Part shown: piece after piece, positions 1 to 37,146 of the stretch | How the letters are laid out: each line of letters starts with the position of its first letter | Numbering within the stretch: position 1 is the first letter of the stretch | Sequence record: KP010268 | Length of the DNA stretch: 37,146 nucleotides | Reading direction: 5' to 3' (one strand) | Source: Shigella phage SfMu | Made by a program: the position numbers and the translations under genes | Notes under the pieces: generated by a model | Told to the model about the DNA's origin: nothing | The model's database searches: none | What the model saw: only the letters and a program-made list of their open reading frames with translations

Positions 1-176
1 TGTATTGATTCACGAGAAGTACGAAAAATACCGGGAGGACATTGGATTATTCGGGATTTGACGGGATTTGATTTGGTGGGGCTTGCAAGCCTGTAGAGCA
101 GATTTTAGTCGTTAAGCCGTGAAACGCGAAAGATTACCAGATAATGGCTTTGTTTCATTAAAAATACGAAAAACAA
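1..176. mobile_element. Left end (attL) with three transposase-binding repeats (L1 about 6-28, L2 about 114-135, L3 about 151-176)
   Basis: Repeated ...GAAGTACGAAAAA / GTGAAACGCGAAAGA / GTTTCATTAAAAATACGAAAAAC motifs near the terminus, matching the Mu-family end-site pattern from recall. Confidence 0.8.
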
Positions 177-325
177 AATAACTACTGAACTTGCTTCTAA
201 ACAATTCAAAAAAGCTTCAAAACAAATAACAACAGGGCGACTGTTGAACGATTATACCGCAAAACAGTCTATAACATCCTAAACCCATTATTGAGGTAAG
301 CCGTGCTTTAGTTCGCTCCTGGTTG

Positions 326-850
326 TTATACAGCTTTTTTTACATCGTCTTCTCTTGCCGGGAGGTTGTGTTCCTTATTTTCATACTGAGATAAAATCTC
401 TCTCGCTTTTTCCGGCGGTAATGCTTGAAGTGTCTGTAGGGTTCTTTGTTGTTCCACAGTAACCCCCAATGCTTCTAACGCTTTATCTTTGCTAACAATT
501 GTCGGCATAAGACCTTTAATTCCTGCCACACGAATGATCTCAATAGCCGCAGCTTGCTCATCAGGCGTTAAGAAACTCATTGCATAAACTAGCCGCTCAT
601 CAACTGTATGATGGCTTGGTACATGTACTGGAGGGGTATCAGAAAATGATGCTCCCTTAATAGCCCTTTGGGTTTCTTCTGGTAAGCTGTTGATGTGATA
701 TTCATAAGCCACACCTTTTCCACCATGACGTTGACGTTTTACCCAATCTTCTGCCACAGCCTTTCTGGTAATGTTAGTCGCCAACTTTGGCACACCAGGC
801 ATCCCCTCCAGCTCTTTCGCATTAAACCATTCTTTGATTTCAAAAGACAT
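326..850 (-). CDS. c: Lysogenic repressor c (D108-type N-terminal DNA-binding domain, Mu-like C-terminus)
   Basis: 174 aa, leftward, first gene inside the left end; C-terminus ...LQALPPEKAREILSQYENKEH...VKKAV resembles Mu repressor; N-terminus [27 protein letters not shown] is visibly similar to the transposase N-terminus. Confidence 0.85.
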   Translation of the reverse strand: MSFEIKEWFNAKELEGMPGVPKLATNITRKAVAEDWVKRQRHGGKGVAYEYHINSLPEETQRAIKGASFSDTPPVHVPSHHTVDERLVYAMSFLTPDEQAAAIEIIRVAGIKGLMPTIVSKDKALEALGVTVEQQRTLQTLQALPPEKAREILSQYENKEHNLPAREDDVKKAV

Positions 851-1039
851 TGTTTAAAATCCCAATGATTTCATTAAAGTTGAAAAAAAATTACTTTAAA
901 TTTCAAATAATTAATCAAGATGCTGTAAAATCTTTTCAAATCATCATTGATTCCAAAAAGATTTCACTGTACATTGCTCGATATGCCGTGAGCTACTTTG
1001 CAGAGTAGCTCACGGGTGAATCTGAAAGGATTACATGAA
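851..1039. promoter_or_regulatory. Immunity control region between c and ner: divergent repressor/early promoters, operators, likely transposition enhancer (IAS)
   Basis: AT-rich 189-bp divergent intergenic region between repressor and ner, as in Mu/D108; individual operators not resolved. Confidence 0.6.
986..1015. promoter_or_regulatory. Perfect 11-bp inverted repeat CCGTGAGCTAC-N8-GTAGCTCACGG, probable Ner operator (D108 type)
   Basis: Read directly in the sequence, about 25 bp upstream of the ner start; matches my recollection of the D108 Ner binding site. Confidence 0.6.
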
Positions 1040-1261
1040 ATGCATATGAATAAAAGAGCTAACCGCCAAGACTGGCATCGGGCTGACATCGTTGCTGAGT
1101 TACGAAAACGCAATATGTCACTGGCCGAATTGGGAAGATCGAATCATCTTTCGTCTTCAACATTAAAAAATGCTTTAGATAAGAGATACCCAAAAGCGGA
1201 AAAAATCATTGCAGATGCATTGGGAATGACACCGCAGGATATCTGGCCATCTCGATACTAG
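1040..1261 (+). CDS. ner: Ner, early negative regulator (DNA-binding, 73 aa)
   Basis: [34 protein letters not shown]...; AAGGA RBS 9 nt upstream of ATG 1040; the six-frame ORF from 998 begins inside the operator palindrome so the internal start is preferred. Confidence 0.85.
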
Positions 1262-1268
1262 GTGCGCT

Positions 1269-3257
1269 ATGAAAGAGTGGTATACAGCGAAAGAATTGCT
1301 TGGTTTTGCTGGTTTGCCAAAGCAAGCAACTAACATTACACGTAAGGCACAAAGAGAAGGCTGGGTGTTTAGGCAAGTTACAGGTACTAAAGGTGTATCA
1401 TTTGAATTCAATATCAAATCATTTCCTGTTGCATTACGTGCTGAAATTTTATTGCAACAAGGAGGTATTGAAACAAGCCAGGGCCGTTTTGAAATCGCCC
1501 GCCCCACGCTGGAAGCCTATGATTATGATCGTGAGGCACTGTGGAGCAAATGGGATAACGCCAGCGATTCCCAGCGCAGACTTGCTGAAAAATGGTTGCC
1601 TGCGGTTCAGGCCGCAGACGAAATGCTGAACCAGGGGATTTCAACGAAAACGGCTTTTGCGACCGTTGCAGGGCATTACCAGGTCAGCGCATCCACTTTG
1701 CGTGACAAGTATTACCAGGTACAGAAGTTTGCGAAGCCTGACTGGGCGGCTGCTCTTGTTGATGGACGTGGTGCATCCCGTCGCAACGTTCACAAAAGTG
1801 AATTTGACGAGGATGCCTGGCAGTTTCTGATTGCAGATTATCTGCGACCGGAAAAACCCGCCTTCCGCAAATGTTATGAGCGTCTGGAACTGGCAGCCCG
1901 CGAGCATGGCTGGAGTATTCCCTCCCGTGCCACGGCCTTTCGCCGGATTCAGCAACTGGACGAGGCAATGGTTGTTGCCTGTCGTGAAGGTGAACATGCA
2001 CTGATGCATCTGATACCGGCACAGCAGCGAACTGTGGAACACCTGGACGCCATGCAGTGGATCAACGGCGACGGTTATCTGCATAACGTCTTTGTACGCT
2101 GGTTTAACGGTGATGTGATCCGTCCGAAAACATGGTTCTGGCAGGATGTGAAAACCCGAAAAATTCTGGGCTGGCGCTGCGATGTGAGCGAGAACATTGA
2201 TTCAATTCGCCTCTCGTTCATGGATGTTGTGACTCGCTACGGTATCCCGGAGGATTTTCACATCACCATTGATAACACCCGTGGTGCTGCGAATAAATGG
2301 CTGACGGGAGGCGCGCCCAATCGCTACCGCTTTAAGGTAAAAGAGGACGATCCAAAAGGACTGTTTTTACTGATGGGTGCGAAAATGCACTGGACAAGCG
2401 TTGTTGCCGGTAAAGGCTGGGGCCAGGCAAAACCTGTTGAACGTGCTTTCGGTGTTGGTGGGCTTGAGGAATACGTTGATAAGCATCCGGCACTGGCTGG
2501 CGCATATACGGGGCCAAATCCGCAGGCAAAACCTGATAACTATGGCGACCGCGCTGTTGATGCAGAGCTGTTTCTGAAAACCCTTGCCGAAGGTGTGGCG
2601 ATGTTCAATGCCAGAACAGGCCGTGAAACAGAAATGTGCGGGGGCAAACTCTCGTTTGATGATGTTTTCGAGCGTGAATACGCCAGAACGATTGTGCGTA
2701 AGCCAACCGAAGAACAAAAACGGATGCTGTTACTGCCTGCCGAGGCGGTGAACGTTTCACGCAAAGGCGAGTTTACGCTTAAAGTTGGCGGCTCCCTTAA
2801 AGGCGCGAAAAACGTTTATTACAACATGGCATTAATGAATGCCGGAGTGAAAAAAGTTGTGGTCAGATTTGATCCACAGCAGTTACACAGCACGGTTTAT
2901 TGCTACACCCTGGACGGTCGGTTTATCTGTGAAGCGGAATGTCTGGCACCTGTTGCGTTTAATGATGCTGCGGCAGGCCGTGAATATCGCCGCCGCCAGA
3001 AACAACTGAAATCTGCGACGAAAGCAGCGATTAAGGCACAGAAACAAATGGATGCACTGGAAGTGGCAGAGCTGCTGCCGCAGATAGCCGAATCTGAAGC
3101 ACCAGAATCACGAATTGTCGGCATTTTCCGGCCTTCCGGTAATACGGAACGGGTGAAGAATCAGGAGCGTGATGATGAATACGAAACTGAGCGTGATGAA
3201 TATCTGAATCATTCGCTGGATATTCTGGAACAGAACAGACGTAAAAAAGTCATTTAA
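1269..3257 (+). CDS. A: Transposase A (MuA-like DDE transposase)
   Basis: 662 aa, the size and position of MuA; N-terminal domain [27 protein letters not shown] paralogous to repressor N-terminus; follows ner. Confidence 0.92.
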
Positions 3258-4479: not shown

Positions 4480-4710
4480 ATGTGTACTAAAGCTGAAAAA
4501 TATATTGAATGGGTTAAACGGGTACAGAATAACAATGTGGCTCTGACTGCATTTAATTGCCCCAAATGCAAAGAGCAAATTATGACGCAATGCTCACCAG
4601 AAAATGAAGTATGGGACTCCTTTGCATGTTGTCCGTGGTGCAGCGCAGTTTTCTTTAAGCAGGTAAAAGGCGCGAAGGTAAAAGCCAGCGCAGTTATTCA
4701 GAATCAATAA
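4480..4710 (+). CDS. Small early protein with zinc-ribbon Cys motifs (76 aa)
   Basis: CPKC ... CCPWC motifs; GGAG RBS 6 nt upstream of ATG 4480 (six-frame ORF extends to 4456). Confidence 0.6.
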   Translation: MCTKAEKYIEWVKRVQNNNVALTAFNCPKCKEQIMTQCSPENEVWDSFACCPWCSAVFFKQVKGAKVKASAVIQNQ

Positions 4711-4721
4711 GGAGAAACAAA

Positions 4722-4985
4722 ATGGCAAAAGTAATTATTGAAATTAAAAATACAGTATCTGGAATTAAAGGACGGAATTTGCGCACCAGCATTGCGGTTG
4801 ACGGTAGTGTGGAACTGGACGGTGATGAGGGGACACTTGCAGGTCTGGTGGCGTTACTGGTGCTTAATAAAAGCCAGAAAATAATTAATGAGTCAGCCCA
4901 TGAAGCTATCGAGATTTTGAAAAACGATGGTGTCATTACCGGTGGCCGTGTCACTGAAATGGCTGTTGAAAAAACATGCCACTGA
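4722..4985 (+). CDS. Hypothetical early protein (87 aa)
   Basis: Strong AAGGAG RBS upstream of ATG; tightly packed in the early operon. Confidence 0.65.
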   Translation: MAKVIIEIKNTVSGIKGRNLRTSIAVDGSVELDGDEGTLAGLVALLVLNKSQKIINESAHEAIEILKNDGVITGGRVTEMAVEKTCH

Positions 4986-4999
4986 AAGGAACGCTGACA

Positions 5000-5419
5000 A
5001 TGAACGTCAAAATCCGAAATGAAATCCGGGCATTAATTCGGATTAAAGAGCGTAATAACAATGGTGGAGACTTGCGCGAATTTATTTGTGCGCGCGAAGT
5101 TGAGGGGTATGGCGAAAAGACTTACCTGATTGCATTTGACCATTACAGCATTTGTGCGCGTTATTGCGGAGAGGCGGTATTCCGCGCCATTACGTTTGGC
5201 AATGCCTTCAATGTGGATTTATGGGAGTACGTCATGGACCGGGAATACATCTGCGCATCAGACCCTGAAGCCCGTGAAATGTGGCAGCGTATCTGGCGCG
5301 ATTACCGGTTAATGGCAAAAGGCTGGGCGCGCTGTTGTTATTCCTCGCTTGCCCTGAAAGCGGTTCAGTTATCGCTGCGGCATATTCCGGCATCACTGCG
5401 CGAGCCTCTGTTGTACTGA
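5000..5419 (+). CDS. Hypothetical early protein (139 aa)
   Basis: AAGGA RBS 9 nt upstream of ATG 5000; six-frame ORF extends to 4976 overlapping the previous gene. Confidence 0.6.
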   Translation: MNVKIRNEIRALIRIKERNNNGGDLREFICAREVEGYGEKTYLIAFDHYSICARYCGEAVFRAITFGNAFNVDLWEYVMDREYICASDPEAREMWQRIWRDYRLMAKGWARCCYSSLALKAVQLSLRHIPASLREPLLY

Positions 5420-6262: not shown

Positions 6263-6359
6263 TACCACCATTAATATTTAATTAATTCACATTCTTTTAA
6301 TTATGGCGCGATGCGTCAGGGGACGACTCGCGCCTGAATCAGGACCAGAGGAAATGAAT

Positions 6360-6908
6360 ATGAAAGCATATGCTTATTTTAAACTGAGTGACGCAGCCGC
6401 TAACGGTTATACGATTCGCTGGCTGAAAGATGTTTCTGTTAAGCGTGACAAAATCATCTGCTCATTGCAGCGTGCGTTTGGCGCAGACGGTGTTTCCCTT
6501 GTCAGTAACAGAGGGTATGAACGGGTTGAATGTATCTGGATGAATCAATTAGCGCCGGAATTATGGCGTGGTAAATCAGACGGACTGTTTATTGGTGGAT
6601 TTCAGTTTTATGGCGTTGTACCGGATATAACAACACCGGAAGGCCGAAACAATGCGACGCTTATTCAGGAACATGAAGAGCAACTCCGGAAATATCCCAC
6701 ATTCCCGGTCTGGTTGTGTAATGAACTCGGGGTTGATGTTGTACCCAACATGTTTGATCTCAAATCAGTCTGGACGATGCACCACAGCCGTGACGGATTC
6801 GGCATTTTGTTTGAGGTGTGCCTGCTGGATGGTGAGGTTAAGGGACCGGTTCCTGCCGAATGCCAGCGCATTAAACATTCTGAATTTGTGGCACTGACGG
6901 AGGAATAA
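6360..6908 (+). CDS. Hypothetical early protein (182 aa)
   Basis: AGAGGA RBS 7 nt upstream of ATG 6360; six-frame ORF extends to 6303. Confidence 0.6.
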   Translation: MKAYAYFKLSDAAANGYTIRWLKDVSVKRDKIICSLQRAFGADGVSLVSNRGYERVECIWMNQLAPELWRGKSDGLFIGGFQFYGVVPDITTPEGRNNATLIQEHEEQLRKYPTFPVWLCNELGVDVVPNMFDLKSVWTMHHSRDGFGILFEVCLLDGEVKGPVPAECQRIKHSEFVALTEE

Positions 6909-6911
6909 CCG

Positions 6912-7442
6912 GTGATTGATGCAAAAGTTCTGAACGGTGTCAGCACATTATTACGGGCTCACGGGCGTCTGACCTGTGGGGTTCTGGCAGAGAAAATGCA
7001 AATGCCACCCTCTGCAATGGTGTATTTCCTGCGTGATGCGGTTGATGCCGGAGTGCTCACCGAATGCAACGGATTTTATGACGTTCCGCGCCCACGTCCG
7101 ACGCCGCCTGTAAGACGAAACGCAACTGAGCAGCCTGCTGTTGATGATGCGGTGTGGTGCAACTGGCGTCGCTCATTACCCTGGGTGGAAGGTAATACCA
7201 TCCCCGCGCTGGCAAAAGAGTTTGCGACGGGCGTGCTGACCTGTGAGTCAGTCCACATTGTTGCTGAGGTGGATAACAGAATGTGCGAACAGGGAATGCC
7301 CCGTTTTGTGATGGCTTATATCGATATCCGGCTGGGGCGTTTTATTTGCAGTTCAAGCGCCTGGAATATCACCGACCATGTACTGCGTTATCTCATTCTT
7401 GATTGTTCTCTGGCTCCCGCAGCGGTGCAGGAGGTGGCGTGA
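6912..7442 (+). CDS. Hypothetical early protein (176 aa), GTG start
   Basis: GGAGG RBS 8 nt upstream of GTG 6912, immediately after the previous stop. Confidence 0.55.
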   Translation: MIDAKVLNGVSTLLRAHGRLTCGVLAEKMQMPPSAMVYFLRDAVDAGVLTECNGFYDVPRPRPTPPVRRNATEQPAVDDAVWCNWRRSLPWVEGNTIPALAKEFATGVLTCESVHIVAEVDNRMCEQGMPRFVMAYIDIRLGRFICSSSAWNITDHVLRYLILDCSLAPAAVQEVA

Positions 7443-7601
7443 TGTTTTTTAAAACGTCAAATCCCGCAGCACTGCTGGCATGGGACCAGTTTATGGCGCT
7501 GCCTGAAACTACGCGAAGAAGCCCGCCATCTTGATAAGGTTCTGGGTTGTGGTTGCCGGTCAGTATTCAGCACAGGTATTGGTGGGCGTCATTTTCATGG
7601 C

Positions 7602-7970: not shown

Positions 7971-8139
7971 AACATCGTATTCGTGGCTGGGGAAATTTAC
8001 CACGGTGAAACAGGAATGCCCGACCTGCGGTAATGAATCCCCTGAATATCTGAAAGAGTGCCCTCATTGTGGCGGGCAGAAATGCAACCACTGCGATATG
8101 GGCGATGACACGGCGTGCATGAATTGTGAAGGTGAGTGA
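7957..8139 (+). CDS. Small double zinc-ribbon protein (60 aa)
   Basis: Four CxxC motifs (CPTC, CPHC, CNHC, CMNC); GGAGG RBS upstream of ATG. Confidence 0.6.
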   Translation: MENNETSYSWLGKFTTVKQECPTCGNESPEYLKECPHCGGQKCNHCDMGDDTACMNCEGE

Positions 8140-8140
8140 T

Positions 8141-8449
8141 ATGAATAATGGTGTATTTTCAAAATCAGAAGAGCTTGCCGCCCTGCTGATTGCCGGTGGT
8201 TTGCCGAAAAAAGAAGTGCATGACTTTGTGAATTTTGTATATGAGCCGTCTCATGAAAAAGCTATTGACGAGGTCATGGCGTACCGGTTTGGCATTGTTG
8301 CTGAGTCACTGAGTCCTCACTGGATTATTGAAAATCTCCGCGCTATTGCTGATGGCAACGATAAATCAGCAGCCGTTGCTGCACTGGATGTGTTACGGCA
8401 AATGAGTCTGAAATTTTATCCTGAATTTATTCTGAGGGCCGCAAAATGA
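8141..8449 (+). CDS. Hypothetical early protein (102 aa)
   Basis: ATG 8141 directly after previous stop with AGGTGA RBS; six-frame ORF from GTG 8126. Confidence 0.6.
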   Translation: MNNGVFSKSEELAALLIAGGLPKKEVHDFVNFVYEPSHEKAIDEVMAYRFGIVAESLSPHWIIENLRAIADGNDKSAAVAALDVLRQMSLKFYPEFILRAAK

Positions 8450-8748
8450 ACAATGAAGATAAATTTACTCCCCTTAATATTGATAACGTCATGGCTGAAA
8501 AAGGGATGCTGGAACGTGTTCGCGCTATCGTTGAATATGGTATTAAGCATAATCTCACCGCCAGAGAAGTCCGTGACATTATCAACCGCGAAATGAATCG
8601 TCTGGAAACAGTAGTGGCACTGCAAAATGAAACAGCCCGCGAGGAGTACATCCGCCGCAGGCTGGGGTTATCAGACCAGGATATTGTTACTGACGCTCAT
8701 GTGTTTGAGGCTTTTGAGATCCGTCAGCATCTGGGTCTAACGAACTGA
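8446..8748 (+). CDS. Hypothetical early protein (100 aa)
   Basis: ATGA start/stop overlap with previous gene, GAGGG RBS. Confidence 0.6.
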   Translation: MNNEDKFTPLNIDNVMAEKGMLERVRAIVEYGIKHNLTAREVRDIINREMNRLETVVALQNETAREEYIRRRLGLSDQDIVTDAHVFEAFEIRQHLGLTN

Positions 8749-8953
8749 TAATGTCTTCCATGATCTTTGACAGTTGCATGTTTTCGCGGCGGCTTGTTCT
8801 TATTGCAGGCGCATCTTTTAAAATCTCTGCTGAAGAGCTGAAAATGGCCTGGCCCTCTTCTGCGGTGATGATCGCCTTCTTCACCAGAAGGCGCACCAGT
8901 GCTGATGCAATCGCATAACCTGCAACATCATAAGGTTGTACATTATTTTCCAT
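8687..8953 (-). CDS. Candidate reverse-oriented small ORF (88 aa) in the early operon
   Basis: Minus-strand ORF spanning the 274-bp plus-strand gap before gemA; GAGG RBS 5 nt upstream of its ATG; no homology recognised. Confidence 0.3.
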   Translation of the reverse strand: MENNVQPYDVAGYAIASALVRLLVKKAIITAEEGQAIFSSSAEILKDAPAIRTSRRENMQLSKIMEDIISSLDPDADGSQKPQTHERQ

Positions 8954-9022
8954 AAAATCCTCTCTGATTGATGTGTAAATTCAGGCGGTGTTGCAGCACC
9001 GCCTCTTTCCGGAGGTACGATC

Positions 9023-9574
9023 ATGAATCGCACATCCCTGATTAAATTAATCCATGTCGCCCGTCGGGAGCTACAACTCGACGACGACACTTACCGCGCT
9101 TTTCTGATGCAGAAAACGGGCAAAATCAGTTGCCGCGAGCTGACGGTAACGCAACTGGAACAGGTGCTCGATGCCATGAAAGAACGCGGCTTTAAGAAGC
9201 TGAATAAACATCCACGTCGCCGCTTTAAGGGGCATGTCACGCCCCGCGAGAAGGTATACAAAGTCTGGCAGCAGATGGCAGAAGACGGTTTTATTACCGA
9301 TGGCGGTGATGTGGCGCTGGATAAATATGTTCAGCGCCTGACGGCGAAACGTAATGGCGGACAGGGTGTTTCCACGCTGGCGTGGTGTCATGGCGACACC
9401 CTGTTGATTGTTCTCGAAACTCTCAAGCAGTGGCATATCCGCTGTATTCGTGAAGCCTTTTCCCGTCACGGGCTTCCGTTGCCGGTCAGTCCGTCCGGGC
9501 GTGAACTGCGCGGCTATGATGCCATGACGGCGGCTTATGCCCATGCCAGAAAGACACGGAGGATGGCACAATGA
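9023..9574 (+). CDS. gemA: GemA-like early protein (183 aa)
   Basis: Size and position immediately upstream of mor match Mu gemA; GGAGG RBS. Confidence 0.6.
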   Translation: MNRTSLIKLIHVARRELQLDDDTYRAFLMQKTGKISCRELTVTQLEQVLDAMKERGFKKLNKHPRRRFKGHVTPREKVYKVWQQMAEDGFITDGGDVALDKYVQRLTAKRNGGQGVSTLAWCHGDTLLIVLETLKQWHIRCIREAFSRHGLPLPVSPSGRELRGYDAMTAAYAHARKTRRMAQ

Positions 9575-9960
9575 CGGAAGATTTATTTGGTGATTTGCAG
9601 GATGACACCATCCTGGCACATCTTGACAATCCCGCAGAGGATGCGTCACGCTTTCCGGCACTGCTGGCGGAGCTGAACGATTTACTGCGCGGGGAGTTGT
9701 CCCGGCTGGGTGTTGATCCTGCCCATTCACTGGAGATTGTTGTGGCTATCTGTAAGCATCTGGGTGGCGGTCAGGTCTACATTCCACGCGGTCAGGTTCT
9801 GGACTCGCTGATTCGGGATTTGCGTATCTGGAATGATTTTAACGGTCGCAACGTCAGCGAACTGACCACCCGTTATGGTGTCACTTTCAATACGGTTTAC
9901 AAGGCCATTCGCCGGATGCGACGGCTGAAATACCGCCAGTACCAGCCCTCACTTCTGTAA
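9571..9960 (+). CDS. mor: Mor, middle operon regulator (transcription activator)
   Basis: 129 aa MTEDLFGDLQDDTILAHLDNPAED... recognised as Mu Mor; last gene of early operon; paralogous to C downstream. Confidence 0.9.
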   Translation: MTEDLFGDLQDDTILAHLDNPAEDASRFPALLAELNDLLRGELSRLGVDPAHSLEIVVAICKHLGGGQVYIPRGQVLDSLIRDLRIWNDFNGRNVSELTTRYGVTFNTVYKAIRRMRRLKYRQYQPSLL

Positions 9961-13319: not shown

Positions 13320-14975
13320 ATGAACACCAGAGAAAACAATCTTAAAGCCCTTCATGCCCCCCGAAAAATCGACCTGCGTAAGGAAGCCGAACTGCTGGGC
13401 GTGAATATCGTTACCGATATCGGGGAAGCACAGCCTCGCAATGAACCGGTTTTTCTGGGTTATCAGCGCCGCTGGTTTGAGGATGAAAGCCAGATTTGTA
13501 TTGCTGAAAAATCCCGTCGTACCGGTCTGACATGGGCCGAAGCGGGCCGCAATGTCATGACGGCAGCAAAGCCGCGTCGCCGTGGCGGTCGCAACGTTTT
13601 TTATGTGGGTTCCCGTCAGGAAATGGCGCTGGAATACATTGCCGCCTGTGCCCTGTTTGCCCGCGCCTTTAACCAACTGGCAAAGGCTGACGTATGGGAG
13701 CAGACCTTCTGGGACAGCGACAAAAAAGAAGAAATCCTCACTTATATGATCCGTTTCCCTAACAGCGGATTTAAGGTGCAGGCGCTGTCAAGCCGTCCGT
13801 CTAACCTGCGTGGTTTGCAGGGGGACGTGGTGATTGATGAGGCGGCATTTCATGAAGCCCTGGACGAACTCCTGAAAGCGGCTTTTGCTCTCACCATGTG
13901 GGGTGCCCGCGTGCGGATCATATCGACACATAACGGCGTCGATAACCTGTTTAACCAGTACATTCAGGATGCGCGCGAGGGGCGCAAGGATTACAGCGTT
14001 CACCGCATCACGCTGGATGATGCCATCGCTGACGGGTTGTACCGACGTATCTGTTACGTCACGAATCAGCCGTGGTCGCCGGAAGCGGAAAAAGCCTGGC
14101 GTGATGGCCTGTACCGGAATGCGCCGAATAAAGAGAGTGCCGACGAGGAATACGGCTGCATTCCCAAAAAATCCGGGGGCGCTTATCTGTCACGCGTGCT
14201 GATTGAAGCCGCCATGACGCCAGTGCGGGATATCCCGATTCTGCGTTTTGAAGCCCCGGACGATTTTGAATCGCTGACACCACAAATGCGCCACGGCATC
14301 GTTCAGGACTGGTGTGAACAGGAGCTGCTCCCGTTGCTCGATGCGCTGTCGCCGCTCAATAAACACGTACTGGGCGAAGACTTTGCACGCCGTGGCGACC
14401 TGACGGTGTTTGTGCCGCTTGCCATCACTCCTGACTTACGCAAACGCGAATGTTTCCGCGTGGAGCTGCGTAATGTGACCTATGACCAGCAGCGACAAAT
14501 CCTTTTATTCATTCTGTCCCGTTTGCCCCGTTTTACCGGCGCTGCATTTGATGCCACCGGTAACGGCGGTTATCTGGCAGAAGCCGCCCGTCTGATTTAT
14601 GGCCCGGAGATGATCGACTGTGTGAATCTGACCGCATCCTGGTATCAGGAGTGGATGCCGAAACTGAAAGGCGAGTTTGAAGCGCAGAACATCACGATTG
14701 CCCGGCACCAGACCACACTTGATGACCTGCTCCACATCAAGGTGGACAAAGGTATTCCGCAGATTGATAAGGGGCGCACAAAAGATGAAGGCGGTAAAGG
14801 CCGACGACATGGCGACTTTGCCGTGGCGCTCTGTATGGCTGTCAGGGCGTCTTATATGAATGGTTTTGTTATCGACGAGGACAGCATACAGGCGCTGCCA
14901 CCACGCCACCGTGGTGATGATGTTGATAACGATGATTTTGATGATTATCACCAGTTTGAACGAGGGGGCTGGTAA
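13320..14975 (+). CDS. Terminase large subunit
   Basis: 551 aa; ATG 13320 with GAGAGGG RBS (six-frame ORF extends upstream to 13128); motif VVIDEAAFH; precedes portal. Confidence 0.8.
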   Translation: MNTRENNLKALHAPRKIDLRKEAELLGVNIVTDIGEAQPRNEPVFLGYQRRWFEDESQICIAEKSRRTGLTWAEAGRNVMTAAKPRRRGGRNVFYVGSRQEMALEYIAACALFARAFNQLAKADVWEQTFWDSDKKEEILTYMIRFPNSGFKVQALSSRPSNLRGLQGDVVIDEAAFHEALDELLKAAFALTMWGARVRIISTHNGVDNLFNQYIQDAREGRKDYSVHRITLDDAIADGLYRRICYVTNQPWSPEAEKAWRDGLYRNAPNKESADEEYGCIPKKSGGAYLSRVLIEAAMTPVRDIPILRFEAPDDFESLTPQMRHGIVQDWCEQELLPLLDALSPLNKHVLGEDFARRGDLTVFVPLAITPDLRKRECFRVELRNVTYDQQRQILLFILSRLPRFTGAAFDATGNGGYLAEAARLIYGPEMIDCVNLTASWYQEWMPKLKGEFEAQNITIARHQTTLDDLLHIKVDKGIPQIDKGRTKDEGGKGRRHGDFAVALCMAVRASYMNGFVIDEDSIQALPPRHRGDDVDNDDFDDYHQFERGGW

Positions 14976-16513
14976 TGGGCCGTATTCTGGATATTTCCGG
15001 GCAGCCGTTTGATTTTGACGATGAAATGCAGACCCGCAGCGATGAGCTGGCAATGGTCATGAAGCGCACGCAGGAGCATCCTTCCAGTGGTGTGACGCCA
15101 AACCGGGCCGCGCAGATGCTGCGTGATGCCGAACGCGGTGATCTGACAGCACAGGCTGACCTGGCCTTTGATATGGAAGAAAAGGACACCCACCTTTTTT
15201 CCGAACTGAGCAAACGCCGCCTTGCCATTCAGGCGCTGGAATGGCGCATCGCTCCGGCACGTGATGCCAGCGCACAGGAGAAAAAAGACGCTGACATGCT
15301 GAATGAATATCTGCATGATGCGGCGTGGTTTGAAGATGCCCTGTTTGATGCCGGTGATGCCATTCTCAAGGGTTATTCCATGCAGGAGATTGAATGGGGC
15401 TGGCTGGGAAAAATGCGCGTGCCGGTGGCGCTGCATCATCGCGATCCGGCGCTGTTCTGCGCGAACCCCGATAATCTGAACGAATTACGTTTGCGTGATA
15501 CGTCTTATCACGGGCTGGAGCTGCAACCATTCGGCTGGTTTATGCACCGGGCCAAATCCCGCACCGGGTACGTTGGCACCAATGGCCTTGTGCGCACGCT
15601 TATCTGGCCTTTTATTTTTAAAAACTATTCCGTGCGTGATTTTGCGGAGTTCCTGGAAATTTACGGACTCCCCATGCGCGTCGGTAAATATCCGACCGGC
15701 TCCACAAACCGCGAAAAAGCCACGCTGATGCAGGCCGTGATGGATATCGGGCGACGTGCCGGTGGCATTATTCCGATGGGGATGACGCTGGATTTTCAGA
15801 GCGCCGCAGATGGTCAGTCTGATCCCTTTATGGCGATGATTGGCTGGGCAGAAAAAGCGATTTCAAAAGCCATTCTGGGCGGCACCCTGACCACAGAGGC
15901 TGGCGATAAAGGTGCACGGTCGCTGGGTGAAGTGCATGATGAGGTTCGCCGGGAAATCCGTAACGCGGATGTGGGCCAGCTTGCCCGCAGTATTAACCGT
16001 GACCTGATTTATCCCCTGCTGGCACTGAACAGTGACAGCACCATTGATATTAACCGCCTGCCGGGCATTGTATTTGATACCAGTGAAGCGGGTGATATTA
16101 CGGCACTGTCTGACGCCATTCCGAAACTGGCGGCGGGAATGCGTATTCCGGTCTCCTGGATACAGGAAAAACTCCATATTCCGCAGCCGGTCGGTGATGA
16201 AGCCGTGTTTACTGCTCAACCGGTCGTCATGGATAACGGTCCGCAGAAAGAGGCCGCATTATCCGCTGAAGATATCCCGCAGGAGGATGATATCGACCGG
16301 ATGGGCGTCTCACCGGAAGATTGGCAGCGTTCGGTTGATCCCCTGCTGAAACCCGTCATTTTTTCTGTGCTGAAAGATGGCCCGGAAGCCGCCATGAACA
16401 AAGCTGCTTCATTATATCCGCAGATGGATGATGCAGAACTTATCGACATGCTGACCCGTGCCATTTTTGTTGCCGATATATGGGGGCGTCTGGATGCCGC
16501 AGCAGACCATTGA
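14975..16513 (+). CDS. Portal protein
   Basis: 512 aa directly after terminase with TAATG overlap; Mu portal-like by size and position. Confidence 0.8.
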   Translation: MGRILDISGQPFDFDDEMQTRSDELAMVMKRTQEHPSSGVTPNRAAQMLRDAERGDLTAQADLAFDMEEKDTHLFSELSKRRLAIQALEWRIAPARDASAQEKKDADMLNEYLHDAAWFEDALFDAGDAILKGYSMQEIEWGWLGKMRVPVALHHRDPALFCANPDNLNELRLRDTSYHGLELQPFGWFMHRAKSRTGYVGTNGLVRTLIWPFIFKNYSVRDFAEFLEIYGLPMRVGKYPTGSTNREKATLMQAVMDIGRRAGGIIPMGMTLDFQSAADGQSDPFMAMIGWAEKAISKAILGGTLTTEAGDKGARSLGEVHDEVRREIRNADVGQLARSINRDLIYPLLALNSDSTIDINRLPGIVFDTSEAGDITALSDAIPKLAAGMRIPVSWIQEKLHIPQPVGDEAVFTAQPVVMDNGPQKEAALSAEDIPQEDDIDRMGVSPEDWQRSVDPLLKPVIFSVLKDGPEAAMNKAASLYPQMDDAELIDMLTRAIFVADIWGRLDAAADH

Positions 16514-18476: not shown

Positions 18477-19562
18477 ATGAAAAAACACGCGATTGGCATT
18501 GCCGCATTGAGTGCGCTGTCCATTGACGATGACGGCTGGTGCCAGCTATTGCCTGCCGGTCATTTCAGTGCCCGTGATGGTCGTCCGTTTGATGTGACAG
18601 GTGGTCAGGGGTGGTTCATCGACGGTGAGATTGCCGGGCGTCTGGTTGAAGGCGTTCGCGCGCTCAACCAGGACGTGCTGATTGATTACGAGCATAACCA
18701 GCTACGTAAGGACAAAGGATTACCCCCGGAACAACTCGTCGCGGCTGGCTGGTTTAACGCCGATGAAATGCAGTGGCGTGAAGGTGAAGGATTATTTATC
18801 CACCCACGCTGGACGGCGGCGGCACAGCAGCGCATCGATGACGGTGAATTTGGTTATCTCTCTGCGGTTTTTCCGTATGACACCGCCACCGGTGCGGTGC
18901 TGCAAATCCGCCTTGCTGCGCTGACCAATGACCCCGGTGCCACCGGCATGAAAAAGCTGACCGCACTGGCGGCAGACCTTCCCGACATCCTTCAACAGGA
19001 GAACAAACCCATGAATGAAACGCTGCGCAAGCTGCTTGCGCGTCTTGGGGTGACGGTCCCCGAAAATGCAGACATCACCGATGAACAGGCCAGCGCGGCC
19101 CTGAGTGCGCTTGATGCGCTCGAAACAGATGCCGGAAAAGTGGCGTCGTTATCCGCCGAACTGGAAAAGGCACAGAAAGCCGCCGTTGACCTGACGAAAT
19201 ACGTCCCGGTGGAAAGCTACAACGCCCTGCGTGATGAACTGGCACAGGCGACTGCACAAAGCGCCACAGCCAGCCTGAGCGCCGTTCTGGATAAGGCGGA
19301 ACAGGAAGGCCGCATTTTCAAAAGCGAACGTGCCTATCTGGAACAGCTTGGCGGTCAGATTGGCGTGGCGGCACTGTCGGCACAGCTTGAGAAAAAACAG
19401 CCCATCGCTGCGTTATCTGCCATGCAGACCACCACAGCGAAAATCCCGTCGCAGGAAAAAACGGCTGTGGCGGTGCTGTCTGCTGATGAACAGGCAGCAG
19501 TGAAGGCGCTCGGCATTACAGAGGCTGAGTATCTGAAAATGAAACAGGAACAAGAAAAATGA
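18477..19562 (+). CDS. I: Head maturation protease / scaffold protein (Mu I-like)
   Basis: 361 aa; Ala/Glu/Gln-rich helical C-terminal half typical of scaffold; position before major capsid gene. Confidence 0.75.
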   Translation: MKKHAIGIAALSALSIDDDGWCQLLPAGHFSARDGRPFDVTGGQGWFIDGEIAGRLVEGVRALNQDVLIDYEHNQLRKDKGLPPEQLVAAGWFNADEMQWREGEGLFIHPRWTAAAQQRIDDGEFGYLSAVFPYDTATGAVLQIRLAALTNDPGATGMKKLTALAADLPDILQQENKPMNETLRKLLARLGVTVPENADITDEQASAALSALDALETDAGKVASLSAELEKAQKAAVDLTKYVPVESYNALRDELAQATAQSATASLSAVLDKAEQEGRIFKSERAYLEQLGGQIGVAALSAQLEKKQPIAALSAMQTTTAKIPSQEKTAVAVLSADEQAAVKALGITEAEYLKMKQEQEK

Positions 19563-20542: not shown

Positions 20543-20953
20543 ATGTCAGGCACTTCGCTTAATTCACAACGGCTGGACACTTCTCGCATCACTTGCACGG
20601 CGATTATTAAATGCCTTCGTCCGGTCTACCGCCGCGCCGGAATCGCCTTTACACGTGGCGAAAACACCGTGGAAGTCACCGAAGAACAACTGGCGATCAT
20701 TCGTGCCGACAGCGTGCTGTCTGTGGTATCTGCATCGTCAGCAGAAACGCTCACTGAGGCTGGGGGGCTGGACGGTCTGGGTGTGGGCGATCTGAACGCC
20801 CGTATCCGTGCGACCGTTGCCGGTCTGGATAAGGCAAACCCGGAACACTTTACCGCAGGGGGGGAACCCAAAGTGAAAGCCGTCAGTGCGGCGCTGGGGG
20901 AACCGGTAAGCAGCGCGCAAATCAAAGCCGCGCTGGCTGAGGCACAAGCATGA
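20543..20953 (+). CDS. Hypothetical head protein (136 aa)
   Basis: AGGAGG RBS upstream; Ala-rich; position between capsid and head-tail genes. Confidence 0.55.
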   Translation: MSGTSLNSQRLDTSRITCTAIIKCLRPVYRRAGIAFTRGENTVEVTEEQLAIIRADSVLSVVSASSAETLTEAGGLDGLGVGDLNARIRATVAGLDKANPEHFTAGGEPKVKAVSAALGEPVSSAQIKAALAEAQA

Positions 20954-21372
20954 GCTATGCCACTCTTGACGACATGGTAAAGCGTTACCGGCGCAGCAGC
21001 CTGGACGCGCTGACATCGGATAAAACCGATTCGGGCGAACCGGATGACAGCCTGGTTGAACAGGCGTTACAGGATGCCCGTGCACTTATCGACAGCTATA
21101 TCAGCCCGCGTTATCCGTTGCCGTTATCTGTTGTGCCAGCCGCCCTGACCCGCGTCTGCTGTGATATTGCCTTCTATTACCTGTGTGATGCGCAGGCAAC
21201 CGAGCAGTGCACGCAACGTTATAAAGATGCCGTTAAGTGGCTGCATGACGTACTTAACGAAAAATTGCCGCTGGGAACGGACGCGCATGGCGCTGAACCG
21301 GTGAGCGAAAATCTGGTGGAAGTGAAATCTGATACCGCTGTTTTTTCCCGTAACCAGAGAGGATTCATCTGA
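20950..21372 (+). CDS. Head-tail connector/completion protein candidate (140 aa)
   Basis: ATGA overlap with previous gene; position as in Mu. Confidence 0.6.
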   Translation: MSYATLDDMVKRYRRSSLDALTSDKTDSGEPDDSLVEQALQDARALIDSYISPRYPLPLSVVPAALTRVCCDIAFYYLCDAQATEQCTQRYKDAVKWLHDVLNEKLPLGTDAHGAEPVSENLVEVKSDTAVFSRNQRGFI

Positions 21373-21920
21373 TGATTGCCACGACAGAAGCTGCGTTGCT
21401 TGAAACCGTTCGCGGGCTGTTCGGGCGAACGTTACGCGAAATCAAAACGCATCCGGGCACCTGGTCTGATGCCGCAATAAAAAAAATCCTGATTGCACCA
21501 CCGTCTGTTTATCTGGCGTGGCTGGGCTGCGGTGAAGGCCGCACCCGCCGTGAGGTGGAAAGCCGCTGGGTGTTTTATGTGGTGGCAAAAATGCTGAATG
21601 GTCGGGAGACCGACCGTCCGGGGATTTACCAGATTGTTGAGCGTCTGATTGCCGGGATGAATGGACAGACGTTTGGCCCGACTACCGGCCTGCGCCTGAC
21701 CAGCGTCCAGAACCTGTATACCAGTGCTCAGGGTAATTCAGGTGTCGCACTGTACGGCATCTATTTCAGTGGCATCACGCCGTTGCCGTCAGGTGTGGAC
21801 ATGGATTCGCTGGATGATTACGAGCGTCACTGGCAGACCTGGAAATTCCCGGACGAAACCCCGGAATTTGCCGCACATATCAATGTGAATCAGGAAGAGG
21901 ATCATGATGCTGAAAATTAA
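21372..21920 (+). CDS. Head-tail joining / tail terminator candidate (182 aa)
   Basis: Start overlaps previous stop; position before sheath gene. Confidence 0.6.
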   Translation: MIATTEAALLETVRGLFGRTLREIKTHPGTWSDAAIKKILIAPPSVYLAWLGCGEGRTRREVESRWVFYVVAKMLNGRETDRPGIYQIVERLIAGMNGQTFGPTTGLRLTSVQNLYTSAQGNSGVALYGIYFSGITPLPSGVDMDSLDDYERHWQTWKFPDETPEFAAHINVNQEEDHDAEN

Positions 21921-31870: not shown

Positions 31871-33336
31871 TGTTTTATATTGATAACGACAGCGGCGTAA
31901 CCGTCATGCCGCCCGTATCCGCCCAGCGTAGTGCTATCGTTCGCTGGTTTTCAGAAGGTGACGGGAATAATGTTATCACATGGCCCGGCATGGACTGGTT
32001 TAATATTGTGCAGGCGGAGTTATTAAACACGCTGGAAGAAGCCGGTATTCAACCGGATAAAACAAAATTAAACCAGCTTGCACTGTCCATTAAAGCCATT
32101 ATGAGCAATAACGCGCTGCTGATAAAAAATAACCTCAGCGAAATTAAAACTGCCGGGGCATCAGCACAGCGTACAGCACGTGAAAATCTGGATATCTATG
32201 ATGCCAGCCTGAACAAAAAAGGACTCGTTCAGCTAACCAGTGCCACTGACAGCCCCAGTGAAACGCTGGCAGCCACCGCAAAAGCGGTGAAAATTGCGAT
32301 GGATAATGCCAGTGCCCGTCTGGCAAAAGACCGGAACGGAGCAGATATTCCCAATAAGCCGCTGTTTATCCAAAACGTCGGTTTACAGGAAACGGTAAAT
32401 CAGGCTTCTGGCGCATTACAGAAAAACCAGAACGGTGCAGATATTCCAGGAAAAGATACCTTCACCAAAAATATTGGTGCCTGCCGCGCATATAGCGCAT
32501 GGGTGGATATTGGTGGCGATAGTCAGGTCTGGACAACTGCGCAATTTATTTCGTGGCTGGAGAGTCAGGGGGCATTTAACCATCCTTACTGGATGTGCAA
32601 AGGCTCATGGGCTTATGCAAATAATAAGGTCATTACAGATACAGGTTGCGGAAATATTTGTCTTGCAGGTGCTGTGGTGGAAGTTATTGGCACTCGCGGC
32701 GCAATGACCATACGTGTTACTACACCGAGTACGTCCAGCGGTGGCGGAATTACTAACGCTCAATTCACTTATATTAATCATGGCAATGCTTATGCTCCTG
32801 GCTGGCGACGAGACTACAACACGAAAAACCAGCAGCCTGCATTTGCTTTAGGGCAAACAGGAAATACCGTCGGAAACGACAAAGCCGTTGGCTGGAACTG
32901 GAATAGCGGTGTTTATGATGCAGATATCAGCGGTGCATCAACATTAATCCTCCACTTCAATAAGAATACGGGGAGCTGCCCTGCTGTACAGTTCCGTGTG
33001 AATTATAAGAACGGCGGTATTTTTTATCGTTCAGCGCGTGATGGTTATGGATTTGAGGCTGGCTGGTCAGAGTTTTACACCACAACACGCAAGCCATCAG
33101 CGAGAGATGTTGGCGCATATACGCAGGCAGAATGTAACTCAAGGTTTATTACAGGTATTCGCCTTGGTGGTCTGTCATCTGTTCGGACATGGAATGGTCC
33201 CGGCTGGTCTGACAGGTCAGGTTATGTTGTTACCGGTTCCGTTAACTCAAACAGAGATGAACTAATTGATACAACTCAGGCAAGGCCAGTTCAGTATTGC
33301 ATTAATGGGACGTGGTATAACGCGGGGAGTATTTAA
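31870..33336 (+). CDS. S: Tail fibre protein S: constant part fused to the variable part of the G segment in the current orientation
   Basis: 488 aa; gix recombination site lies inside the ORF at 32366..32391; C-terminus ...VQYCINGTWYNAGSI parallels the C-terminus of the inverted copy S'. Confidence 0.85.
   Translation: MFYIDNDSGVTVMPPVSAQRSAIVRWFSEGDGNNVITWPGMDWFNIVQAELLNTLEEAGIQPDKTKLNQLALSIKAIMSNNALLIKNNLSEIKTAGASAQRTARENLDIYDASLNKKGLVQLTSATDSPSETLAATAKAVKIAMDNASARLAKDRNGADIPNKPLFIQNVGLQETVNQASGALQKNQNGADIPGKDTFTKNIGACRAYSAWVDIGGDSQVWTTAQFISWLESQGAFNHPYWMCKGSWAYANNKVITDTGCGNICLAGAVVEVIGTRGAMTIRVTTPSTSSGGGITNAQFTYINHGNAYAPGWRRDYNTKNQQPAFALGQTGNTVGNDKAVGWNWNSGVYDADISGASTLILHFNKNTGSCPAVQFRVNYKNGGIFYRSARDGYGFEAGWSEFYTTTRKPSARDVGAYTQAECNSRFITGIRLGGLSSVRTWNGPGWSDRSGYVVTGSVNSNRDELIDTTQARPVQYCINGTWYNAGSI
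32366..32391. repeat. gixL recombination site
   Basis: TTATCCAAAACGTCGGTTTACAGGAA inside S. Confidence 0.8.
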
Positions 33337-33338
33337 CG

Positions 33339-33872
33339 ATGATGCACTTAAAAAACATTTCTGCTGGTAATCCTGAAACAAAAGAGCAATACCAGCTAAC
33401 GAAACAATTTAACATCAAATGGCTTTATACAGAGGATGGGAAAAACTGGTATGAGGAACAAAAGAACTTTCAGCCTGATACGTTGAAAATGGTCTATGAC
33501 CACAACGGCGTTATTATTTGTATTGAAAAGGATGTTTCAGCAATTAATCCGGAAGGCGCAAGCGTCGTTGAGGTTCCTGATATTACAGCAAATCGCCGGG
33601 CTGATATTTCAGGTAAATGGATGTTCAAAGATGGCGTAGTGATAAAGCGAACTTATACCGGGGAAGAGCAGAGGCAACAAGCGGAAAATGAAAAGCAAAG
33701 CCTGCTACAGCTCGTCAGGGATAAAACCCAGCTATGGGACTCACAGCTACGGCTGGGCATTATTTCCGACGAGAATAAACAAAAATTAACCGAGTGGATG
33801 CTCTATGCGCAGAAGGTCGAATCCACAGACACCTCCAGCCTGCCAGTAACGTTTCCCGAACAACCAGAATGA
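33339..33872 (+). CDS. U: Tail fibre assembly protein U
   Basis: 177 aa; N-terminal two-thirds nearly identical to minus-strand U' (MMHLKNI.AGN..T.EQY.LTK...[19 protein letters not shown]). Confidence 0.85.
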   Translation: MMHLKNISAGNPETKEQYQLTKQFNIKWLYTEDGKNWYEEQKNFQPDTLKMVYDHNGVIICIEKDVSAINPEGASVVEVPDITANRRADISGKWMFKDGVVIKRTYTGEEQRQQAENEKQSLLQLVRDKTQLWDSQLRLGIISDENKQKLTEWMLYAQKVESTDTSSLPVTFPEQPE

Positions 33873-33875
33873 AAC

Positions 33876-33895
33876 AAGGCCCGATATCGGGCCTT
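33876..33895. terminator. Bidirectional hairpin between convergent U and U'
   Basis: Self-complementary AAGGCCCGATATCGGGCCTT flanked by A/T runs on both sides. Confidence 0.7.
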
Positions 33896-33900
33896 AATTT

Positions 33901-34428
33901 TTATTCAGGCTTTTGTGGCCATTCAGGATTTGCCGTATCCACACGGCTGACCAGAACACTGTAGCGTTCCCATGACTCCAGTCGTGCGTGTTCCTCATCC
34001 GTCGCCATATTCAGCCTGACAGCGCGTTCCAGCGGCTGGATGACTGATTCAGCTTCGGAAAGTAACGCGGCCTTTTGTGATTCGGCCTGTTGCTGCTGTT
34101 CGTCTGCTGTATAAGTCCTCCTGACCACCGCTCCGTCCTTAAACATCCACTTCCCTGAATCATCGGCACGACGGTTAGCTGTTATATCGGGGATTTCAAC
34201 GACGCTAAAACCTTCAGGATTAAGCGTGGAGGCATCTTTAGTGACGGCGACAATAATATTATTTTCGTCGTAAACAATCTTTATTGTATCCGGCTGAAAG
34301 TTCTTCACTTCCTCATACCAGTTTTTCCCGTCTTCAGCGTAAAGCCAGATGACTCCGTGCTTCTTTGTTAACTCATACTGCTCCAGTGTTTTAGCATTAC
34401 CCGCTTTTATGTTCTTTAAGTGCATCAT
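33901..34428 (-). CDS. Alternative tail fibre assembly protein U'
   Basis: 175 aa paralog of U on the minus strand inside the G segment. Confidence 0.85.
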
Positions 34429-34429
34429 A

Positions 34430-35395
34430 TTAAACGCTCGCTACATTATACCATGTGCCATTTATATACTTTTGAACGGGTCTGTAATAAACGCCAGCTA
34501 TATTATCGGCAGAGTTTTTGCCTGTATCCTGAACATTAATACCAGACAATACATGACCTGAAGGGCACTGGAAATTCCATGTTTGCCAGTTATTCACACC
34601 ATAATATTGCTGTGAGCCAAGCCGGACATCTTTCACATATCTGGAGTCAAAATTGCCATAATTGCCGGGAATAACTTGCGCACCACAAAGCCAGTTACCG
34701 TTATTATCCATGTACGCCTGACCATCGGTGCCATTGGCTGTCCTTGAGTTATTAATCATGTAGATGCCAAATTGCTTATTTCCCAGACCGCCAATCATAA
34801 ATTTGCGGTCGGCATGGTCCTGACGGAGCAAAGCCTGAGCACCATCAGTGGATACCGCATTACGTCCCAAAATAACATTCTGGTCACGCATATGAATCCA
34901 CATGCCGGTACTACTGTTAATTGCAAAACGGTTTGCAAATATATCCCCTGTAACATCAAGACCATGCCCCATGCTTATCCGGCCAGTTCTGAGATTAAGC
35001 GTAAAGGGGCGTAGTGGCCCTATATTACCATTTTCCCCTTCATTCTCTCGTGTAGGGATGATATGCAGGCATTCTTCAGAACGACGAAAAATGGCACCAA
35101 AAGATGAATTAAATATCCTCAGTGCATTGACTGTCGATATTTTCACTTCACTGCTGAAAAGGGCTTCAACAAGAACAGACAAAGCATTCCATTTAAGATT
35201 CATCAGGTCTTTAGGCCGGGTGCCAATGATGCGGTGTCTCCATTTGAAATATTCATTGCCGTTGTTGCCTGTTTCAAACCACATGTAGGAATCGGTGTCT
35301 GCATCCGAATTATTTTTAAACCCAATCTTTGCCCAGTCAGTATTTCGAATCCAGGCAAGGATTGAGTCGTTTTCAAAAGTAAGTCCACCGGACAA
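34430..35395 (-). CDS. Alternative tail fibre variable part S' (no own start; expressed only after G inversion fuses it to the constant part of S)
   Basis: Minus-strand open frame continues through gixR without a start; C-terminus ...[15 protein letters not shown] matches end of S. Confidence 0.8.
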
Positions 35396-35440
35396 CGTAT
35401 CGCCTGTCTTTTGAACAGCGTTACCAGCCTTGTTTACCGT

Positions 35441-35466
35441 TTCCTGTAAACCGAGGTTTTAGATAA
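35441..35466. repeat. gixR recombination site
   Basis: TTCCTGTAAACCGAGGTTTTAGATAA, inverted copy of gixL with 2 mismatches. Confidence 0.8.
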
Positions 35467-36385: not shown

Positions 36386-37031
36386 GTATGAAGGCCAGAT
36401 TGTTGGCTATGGTTCAAAGGAGCTGCGCGTTGAAACCATATCCTGCTGGCTGGCCCGCACAATTATTCAGACAAAGCACTATTCCCGCCGTTTTGTGAAT
36501 AACTCTTACCTCCACCTGGGAGTATTCAGCGGACGCGATCTGGTTGGCGTTCTCCAGTGGGGATATGCCCTTAACCCCAACTCAGGTCGTCGTGTCGTGC
36601 TTGAAACGGATAACCGGGGCTATATGGAGTTGAATCGCATGTGGCTACACGACGACATGCCCCGCAACTCTGAATCACGGGCCATCAGCTACGCGCTGAA
36701 AGTTATCAGATTACTGTATCCGTCAGTGGAGTGGGTTCAGTCCTTTGCTGACGAACGCTGCGGACGCGCAGGCGTTGTGTATCAGGCGTCGAATTTTGAT
36801 TTTATTGGCAGCCATGAAAGCACGTTCTACGAGCTGGATGGTGAGTGGTATCACGAGATAACGATGAACGCGATTAAGCGAGGTGGACAACGAGGCGTGT
36901 ATTTACGGGCTAATAAAGAGCGTGCCGTGGTGCACAAATTTAATCAGTATCGCTACATCAGATTCCTGAACAAGCGAGCAAGGAAGCGGCTAAATACCAA
37001 GCTATTCAGGGTTCAGCCATACCCTAAGTGA
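36336..37031 (+). CDS. mom: Mom DNA modification enzyme (adenine modification, anti-restriction)
   Basis: Last gene before right end, overlapping com 3' end in another frame; GGAG RBS 7 nt upstream of GTG 36336 gives 231 aa; the six-frame ORF opens at ATG 36306 (241 aa) without an RBS. Confidence 0.8.
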
Positions 37032-37059
37032 TCCCCATGTAATGAATAAAAAGCAGTAA

Positions 37060-37146
37060 TTAATACTGCTGTTTCATTTGAAGCGCGAAAGCTAAAGTTT
37101 TCGCATTTATCGTGAAACGCTTTCGCGTTTTTCGTGCGCCGCTTCA
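37060..37146. mobile_element. Right end (attR) with transposase-binding repeats
   Basis: GTTTCATTTGAAGCGCGAAAG / CGTGAAACGCTTTCGCGTTTTTCG / TGCGCCGCTTCA terminal repeats mirroring the left-end sites. Confidence 0.8.

Follow-up and report, generated by a model that had tools for sequence, protein, structure and literature searches.

What immunity does the left end of this Mu-like genome encode: that of Mu, that of D108, or one of its own? The window analyzed here is the whole stretch of DNA from Shigella phage SfMu (37,146 bp, 51.95% G+C), which aligns to both Mu and D108 from end to end and is therefore a complete Mu-like genome. Its first letters are TGTATTGATTCAC, as in Mu and D108, and its last letters are ...GCCGCTTCA. 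Taken as a whole, positions 1-1500 are best explained, and we hold this with high confidence, as a control cassette of the D108 type at the left end of a Mu-like transposable phage genome. Five elements make up the cassette: attL; the repressor gene c, read leftward; an AT-rich region with the putative operators and enhancer; the candidate early promoter Pe, reading rightward, with the presumed Ner operator directly after it; and ner together with ∼76 codons from the start of the transposase gene A (Table 1). The genes, domains, paralogy, inverted repeat, identities, junction, and allele distribution described below were established in this analysis, and what we say of DNA binding and regulation across the cassette we infer by analogy with the related phages.

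Table 1. Features of the left-end cassette and the adjoining backbone, in window coordinates
Feature	Coordinates	Strand	Basis
attL, left end of the Mu-like genome with transposase end-binding sites	1-180	+	alignment with Mu and D108
Repressor gene c, 174 aa, D108 type	326-850	-	ORF, PF02316, identity to D108 c
AT-rich intergenic control region, putative repressor operators/enhancer (IAS)	851-985	.	analogy with Mu and D108
Candidate early promoter Pe, TTGATT-17-TACATT, reading toward ner-A-B	947-975	+	conserved hexamers
Perfect inverted repeat CCGTGAGCTAC-TTTGCAGA-GTAGCTCACGG, presumed Ner operator	986-1015	.	homology to D108
ner, 73 aa, D108 type	1040-1261	+	PF13693, 71/72 identity to D108 Ner
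Transposase gene A, 662 aa, B next	1269-3257	+	ORF
A 5′ part, domain Iα (aa 1-76), enhancer/operator-binding winged helix by homology, D108 type	1269-1496	+	
Rest of A (Iβ, Iγ, DDE core, C-terminal domain), Mu/D108 common backbone	1497-3257	+	PF09039, PF02914, PF09299
Right-hand mosaic junction	1457-1520	+	alignments, identity profile

The architecture of the region (attL, leftward c, operators, Pe, ner, A, B) and its protein families are shared with Mu (AF083977), and gene order and product lengths (c 174 aa, Ner 73 aa, A 662 aa) are shared with D108 (GQ357916); the Mu repressor is 196 aa long. With the left end of the genome at position 1, c adjoins attL and is transcribed leftward, divergently from the plus-strand genes ner-A-B, which begin at 1040. 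Within attL, the transposase-binding sites annotated in D108 at 11-27 and 156-172 align without gaps to identical coordinates in the window. Identity to Mu and D108 is 91-93% over positions 1-100 and declines to 50-75% over 101-300, where D108 itself is 50-68% identical to the window. Positions 14-15, in the left-end L1 region, read GA in place of the TT of Mu and D108; a prophage of E. coli RM11911, to which we return below, also has GA there. The first gene of the early operon, ner, runs from an ATG at 1040 to a stop at 1261, with the start codon and length of the D108 annotation, and encodes a small HTH protein that matches PF13693 HTH_35 (1e-28), Mu Ner (1NEQ, 1.5e-18), and EnrR (7F9H, 1e-22).

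The initial annotation had assigned the immunity module, with its Ner protein, to the D108 type rather than the Mu type, and pairwise alignments bear this out. The c protein is 90.2% identical to its D108 counterpart and 29.9% to that of Mu, and the corresponding figures for Ner are 98.6% and 49.3%. For A, identity over the first 120 residues is 95% to D108 and 63% to Mu, and over the whole protein 98.6% and 92.9%; the Iα domain is at most ∼40% identical to that of Mu. At the DNA level, D108 and the D108-like Mu_3F6 both match positions 300-1270 at 86% identity, while Mu gives no detectable match there; similarity to Mu is undetectable between ∼233 and 1457. The D108-like character of the SfMu c and Ner proteins has been known since 2015, when Jakhetia and Verma (PMC4406740) reported identities of 89% and 98% to the D108 proteins and of 24% and 47% to those of Mu.

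The N-terminus of c is a Mu-type winged-helix DNA-binding domain, and its C-terminal tail ends in VKKAV, as in Mu and D108. In Pfam, c matches PF02316 HTH_Tnp_Mu_1 (1e-44), and by phmmer its residues 7-64 match the solved structures 1TNS (1e-7) and 1G4D (1e-3), those of the Iα domain of MuA and of the DNA-binding domain of the Mu repressor, respectively. The transposase matches PF02316 (2e-39) as well as PF09039, PF02914, and PF09299, the full MuA domain series, and also the structures 1TNS, 1G4D, 2EZK, and 4FCY; the match of its residues 1-75 to 1TNS is distant (E = 7e-13), and that of residues 76-174 to Mu Iβ (2EZK) reaches 4e-61. Repressor and transposase had been read as paralogous at their N-termini, and they are: residues 5-57 of c align gap-free with residues 1-53 of A by BLASTP (E = 1e-18), with 32 of 53 positions identical (60%) and 39 of 53 positive, both proteins belong to PF02316, and both match 1TNS and 1G4D. 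Chance similarity is rejected by the same E value. The two peptides given in the initial annotation correspond exactly to the starts of c and A. The paralogy is shared with D108. We note a trace of it in the DNA, a 26-nt inverted repeat with 81% complementarity between 813-838 and 1269-1294; these are the facing N-terminal coding sequences of c and A, and it is possible that they serve as a substrate for recombination or gene conversion between the paralogous domains. The similarity itself is already known from publications of 1985-86: for Mu and D108, PMC3820752 cites Harshey et al. 1985 and Mizuuchi, Weisberg and Mizuuchi 1986, the latter of which names the repressor/transposase N-terminal similarity outright in its title.

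The intergenic region between c and the Ner repeat would, by analogy with Mu and D108, hold the repressor operators, and A Iα would bind this DNA as the transpositional enhancer (IAS). A scan of 826-985, which includes the first codons of c, finds five TGATTTCA-like repeats, at 835, 866, 936 (minus strand), 948, and 959, compared with 0.26 from the genome-wide expectation and 0.38 from composition-matched shuffles. Since this motif was chosen post hoc from the same region, the enrichment, though real, is exploratory. D108 has six copies, at positions corresponding to those of the window, and the repeats are suggestive of repressor binding sites. SfMu-type alleles that otherwise agree differ in the length or composition of a run of A in the operator spacer (880-887), which reads A8, A7, A6, or GAAGAAA. 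Toward the right of this region lies the candidate for Pe, which ends 10 nt ahead of the Ner repeat and keeps both of its hexamers in D108 and in every related locus. It agrees with the consensus at 8 of 12 positions, under the threshold of a generic promoter scan, and the generic sigma-70 scan accordingly did not call it, its sole call being another weak site at 902-931. We infer from the conserved hexamers that it is Pe, with a predicted transcript start at about 982. For the leftward promoter Pc, a simple pattern search to the right of the Ner repeat returned no convincing match.

If the cassette is of the D108 type, how close is it to that of D108 itself? Across the cassette the two phages are ∼86% identical (∼14% DNA divergence), compared with 96-100% immediately to its right and a divergence of 0-4% in the flanks. 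When window 1-1500 is used as a query against complete E. coli genomes, five chromosomes match at 99.6% (RM11911, RM13745, RM13752, XJ34, and XJ6-3) and many at ∼86%. The RM11911 prophage (NZ_CP044313.1) is 96-100% identical to the window in every 100-bp bin from 1 to 1500, with 100% in 11 of the 15 bins, and shares with it both the Ner repeat spacer TTTGCAGA and the GA at left-end positions 14-15. Beyond 1500, its identity is 94-100% in the rest of A and 71-91% in B, its late genes are ∼70% identical or unalignable, and it has different lysis genes (with a GH108 lysin), tail genes, and fibers. The prophage, at 2506500-2546000 of that chromosome, interrupts the type II secretion gene gspE.

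Scanning IMG/VR for the Ner repeat yields eight contigs, and the same scan of GTDB with one genome per species, in which E. coli and Shigella have one representative, finds none. The eight contigs, D108, the RM11911 prophage, and the window give 11 loci, in which the control region takes the form of two discrete alleles without intermediates. D108 and six of the contigs have the allele with spacer TTTATAGC, whereas the window, RM11911, and the other two contigs have the one with spacer TTTGCAGA, which differs from the D108 spacer at 3 of 8 positions. All 11 loci have the same repeat arms, promoter hexamers, and ner start. On its sequence, the cassette of the window is thus a second D108-type allele, distinct from that of D108 itself, and both the RM11911 match and the allele distribution indicate that the stretch spanning attL to A Iα behaves like a cassette that can be exchanged.

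Whether a second allele also means a second specificity is a separate matter. Compared with D108, the arms of the Ner repeat are identical and the positions of the candidate motifs are kept, while the intergenic DNA, at 73-85% identity, is that of a separate allele. The cassette could be read as a third type of immunity, heteroimmune to D108 as well as to Mu, in which the 14% DNA divergence, concentrated in the operator region, has altered repressor/operator recognition. The 73-85% identity between the two phages over 851-985 is what such a change would draw on, as are the existence of two discrete alleles with no intermediate among the related loci, the 17 differences among 173 aligned residues of c, and the 96-100% identity of the backbone beside the cassette, which implies that the cassettes diverged much earlier. 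However, c has one residue different from D108 in its DNA-binding part (aa 1-60) and A Iα has 5 of 76, the substitutions in c fall mostly in the linker and the C-terminal half, and the TGATTTCA-like repeats have roughly the same number (5 vs 6) and positions in both alleles. We therefore consider a third immunity type unlikely. The fuller version of this proposal, in which attL-c-operator-ner-A(Iα) forms a cassette with its junction fixed at the Iα/Iβ linker and the SfMu-type allele carries a new specificity heteroimmune to D108, seems to us equally doubtful. The near-identical DNA-binding domains suggest instead that the SfMu-type allele would be homoimmune with D108.

The Ner repeat consists of the arm CCGTGAGCTAC at 986-996 and its exact reverse complement GTAGCTCACGG at 1005-1015, with a spacer of 8 nt; in the window, the arms can be lengthened to 12 nt with a spacer of 6 nt. 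It ends 24 nt ahead of the ner start codon. Counting this one, the 37 kb contain just three perfect inverted repeats of at least 11 nt at a spacing of at most 12 nt, against a chance expectation of 0.03 per genome from shuffles and 0.12 from an analytic estimate. The other two are rho-independent terminators, one after gene C and one after the major head gene, which are also present in Mu and D108. The repeat had been recognized from the outset as that of D108 rather than Mu, and the alignment agrees: D108 has identical arms at the homologous position (996-1025), and Mu lacks the CCGTGAGCTAC repeat. The Ner operator of D108, between Pe and ner, has two 11-bp inverted repeats 8 bp apart, and Kukolj, Tolias and DuBow reportedly described the identical repeat in D108 as the Ner binding site. 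In addition, PMC10434027 cites a study of D108 Ner in complex with a 61-bp operator.

A different idea is that 986-1015 is no protein operator and acts chiefly through an RNA hairpin, formed in the 5′ leader of early mRNA, that affects stability or attenuation. The repeat does lie just downstream of the −10 element of the candidate Pe and hence would be transcribed, and the conservation of the arms with variation in the spacer is also compatible with a stem-loop. No T-run follows it, however, and a terminator scan makes no call there; moreover, the arms are invariant without compensatory changes, and invariance gives no support to a stem. The D108 description and the 61-bp operator study likewise weigh against an RNA function, which we judge quite improbable. 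By analogy with D108, then, 986-1015 is presumed to be the Ner operator and footprint.

The identity profile, computed per 100 bp over the left 4.5 kb and in 500-bp tiles further right, maps the extent of the D108-type block. Identity to Mu is 93% in 1-100, 31-54% in 201-1400, 70% in 1401-1500, and 99-100% from 1501; identity to D108 is 50-94% in 1-1500 and 96-100% in 1501-2600. In the remainder of A (1497-3257), each 100-bp bin is 93-100% identical to both phages, mostly 96-100%. The jump at ∼1457-1500 confirms that the region is a mosaic block, as the initial annotation had supposed. Mu similarity restarts at 1457, the final cluster of differences from D108 ends at ∼1487, and the identity to RM11911 decays after 1500. 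In A, ∼1457-1500 corresponds to codons 63-77, the boundary between Iα (aa 1-76) and Iβ; D108, too, switches to Mu-like sequence within A, close to where Iα ends. The description of the rest as a Mu-type backbone holds in that the sequence beyond the junction is Mu-like, but this backbone is common to Mu and D108 and does not discriminate between them.

Beyond 1500, most tiles are equally close to the two phages. Some are nearer D108 (for example 13501-14000, 14501-15000, and 19001-19500) and some nearer Mu (for example 4501-5000, 7001-7500, 8501-9000, and the right end), and the pieces 4754-4985, 8443-8984, and 37027-37146, the last at the right end, match Mu with no D108 match. The relation of D108 to Mu is mosaic in this way, too. 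We note that the right end (37027-37146) is 97.9% identical to Mu and lacks D108 gene 56, so the left end of the window is of D108 type and the right end of Mu type. That the window is simply a strain variant of D108 with evenly accumulated point mutations and no mosaic junction, as the best overall matches of the left 3.3 kb (D108 and the D108-like Mu_3F6) might invite one to think, is hardly credible and was rejected, given the leap in D108 identity at 1500, the presence of the same 1.5 kb at ∼100% in a prophage with a very different backbone, and, elsewhere, the Mu-like right end and the Mu-only pieces.

Other modules of the genome have been replaced or lost. The SfMu paper (PMC4406740) describes two unique early ORFs, no counterpart to Mu gene 12 or Mu gene 19, and diverged ORFs 36-37, and these unique, missing, and diverged genes are also seen when the window is compared with Mu and D108. 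The stretch 6342-6897, within an ORF at 6303-6908 (plus strand), has no Mu or D108 counterpart and replaces the region of the Mu gene 11/12 junction; the ORF, assigned to phrog_2260 (unknown function) and without a Pfam match, probably corresponds to the unique ORF11. Similarly, 8150-8443 is absent from both Mu and D108 and adjoins 8443-8984; the ORF in which it lies (8126-8449, plus strand, 107 aa) matches phrog_1988 (unknown function) and no Pfam family and is probably the unique ORF14. Near ∼10250, the 370 bp encoding gene 19 of Mu and D108 (D108 9511-9881), whose product is a predicted four-helix membrane protein, are absent, and the flanks join cleanly. Within a late region that is otherwise 96-99% identical, DNA similarity to Mu and D108 is undetectable at 20953-21500, which is a replaced module encoding gp36/gp37, the head-tail connector and tail terminator. 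The invertible G segment (32366-35466) has the opposite orientation to that in the Mu and D108 reference records. At ∼34500-35400, the variable end of the tail fiber is diverged (about 83-88%, with partial coverage), which fits the different, O-antigen receptor reported for SfMu.

How the elements of the cassette would work together can be proposed by analogy with Mu and D108. The repressor c would bind operators in 851-985 through its N-terminal winged helix and shut off Pe, giving lysogeny and immunity. During lytic growth, Ner would bind the 11-bp inverted repeat between Pe and ner and damp both early and repressor transcription. The Iα domain of A, as a paralogue of the DNA-binding domain of c, would use the same operator DNA as a transpositional enhancer. 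Sharing this DNA, c and A Iα would therefore compete for it, and the repressor would also inhibit transposition directly; such competition between repressor and transposase for the operator/enhancer is a feature of Mu that we ascribe to the window likewise. In this scheme, c, the operators, and A Iα would be inherited as one block because they must match one another, and the same need would place the junction at the end of Iα.

Since D108-like c and Ner proteins were already reported in 2015, the finding has little significance beyond correct annotation of the locus. It makes two modest additions: the D108-type control region exists as two discrete alleles, and the SfMu allele is a cassette of 1.5 kb that moves among Mu-like backbones of quite different kinds. 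The break of the cassette at the end of the operator-binding domain illustrates the joint exchange of the repressor, its operators, and the enhancer-binding domain of the transposase.
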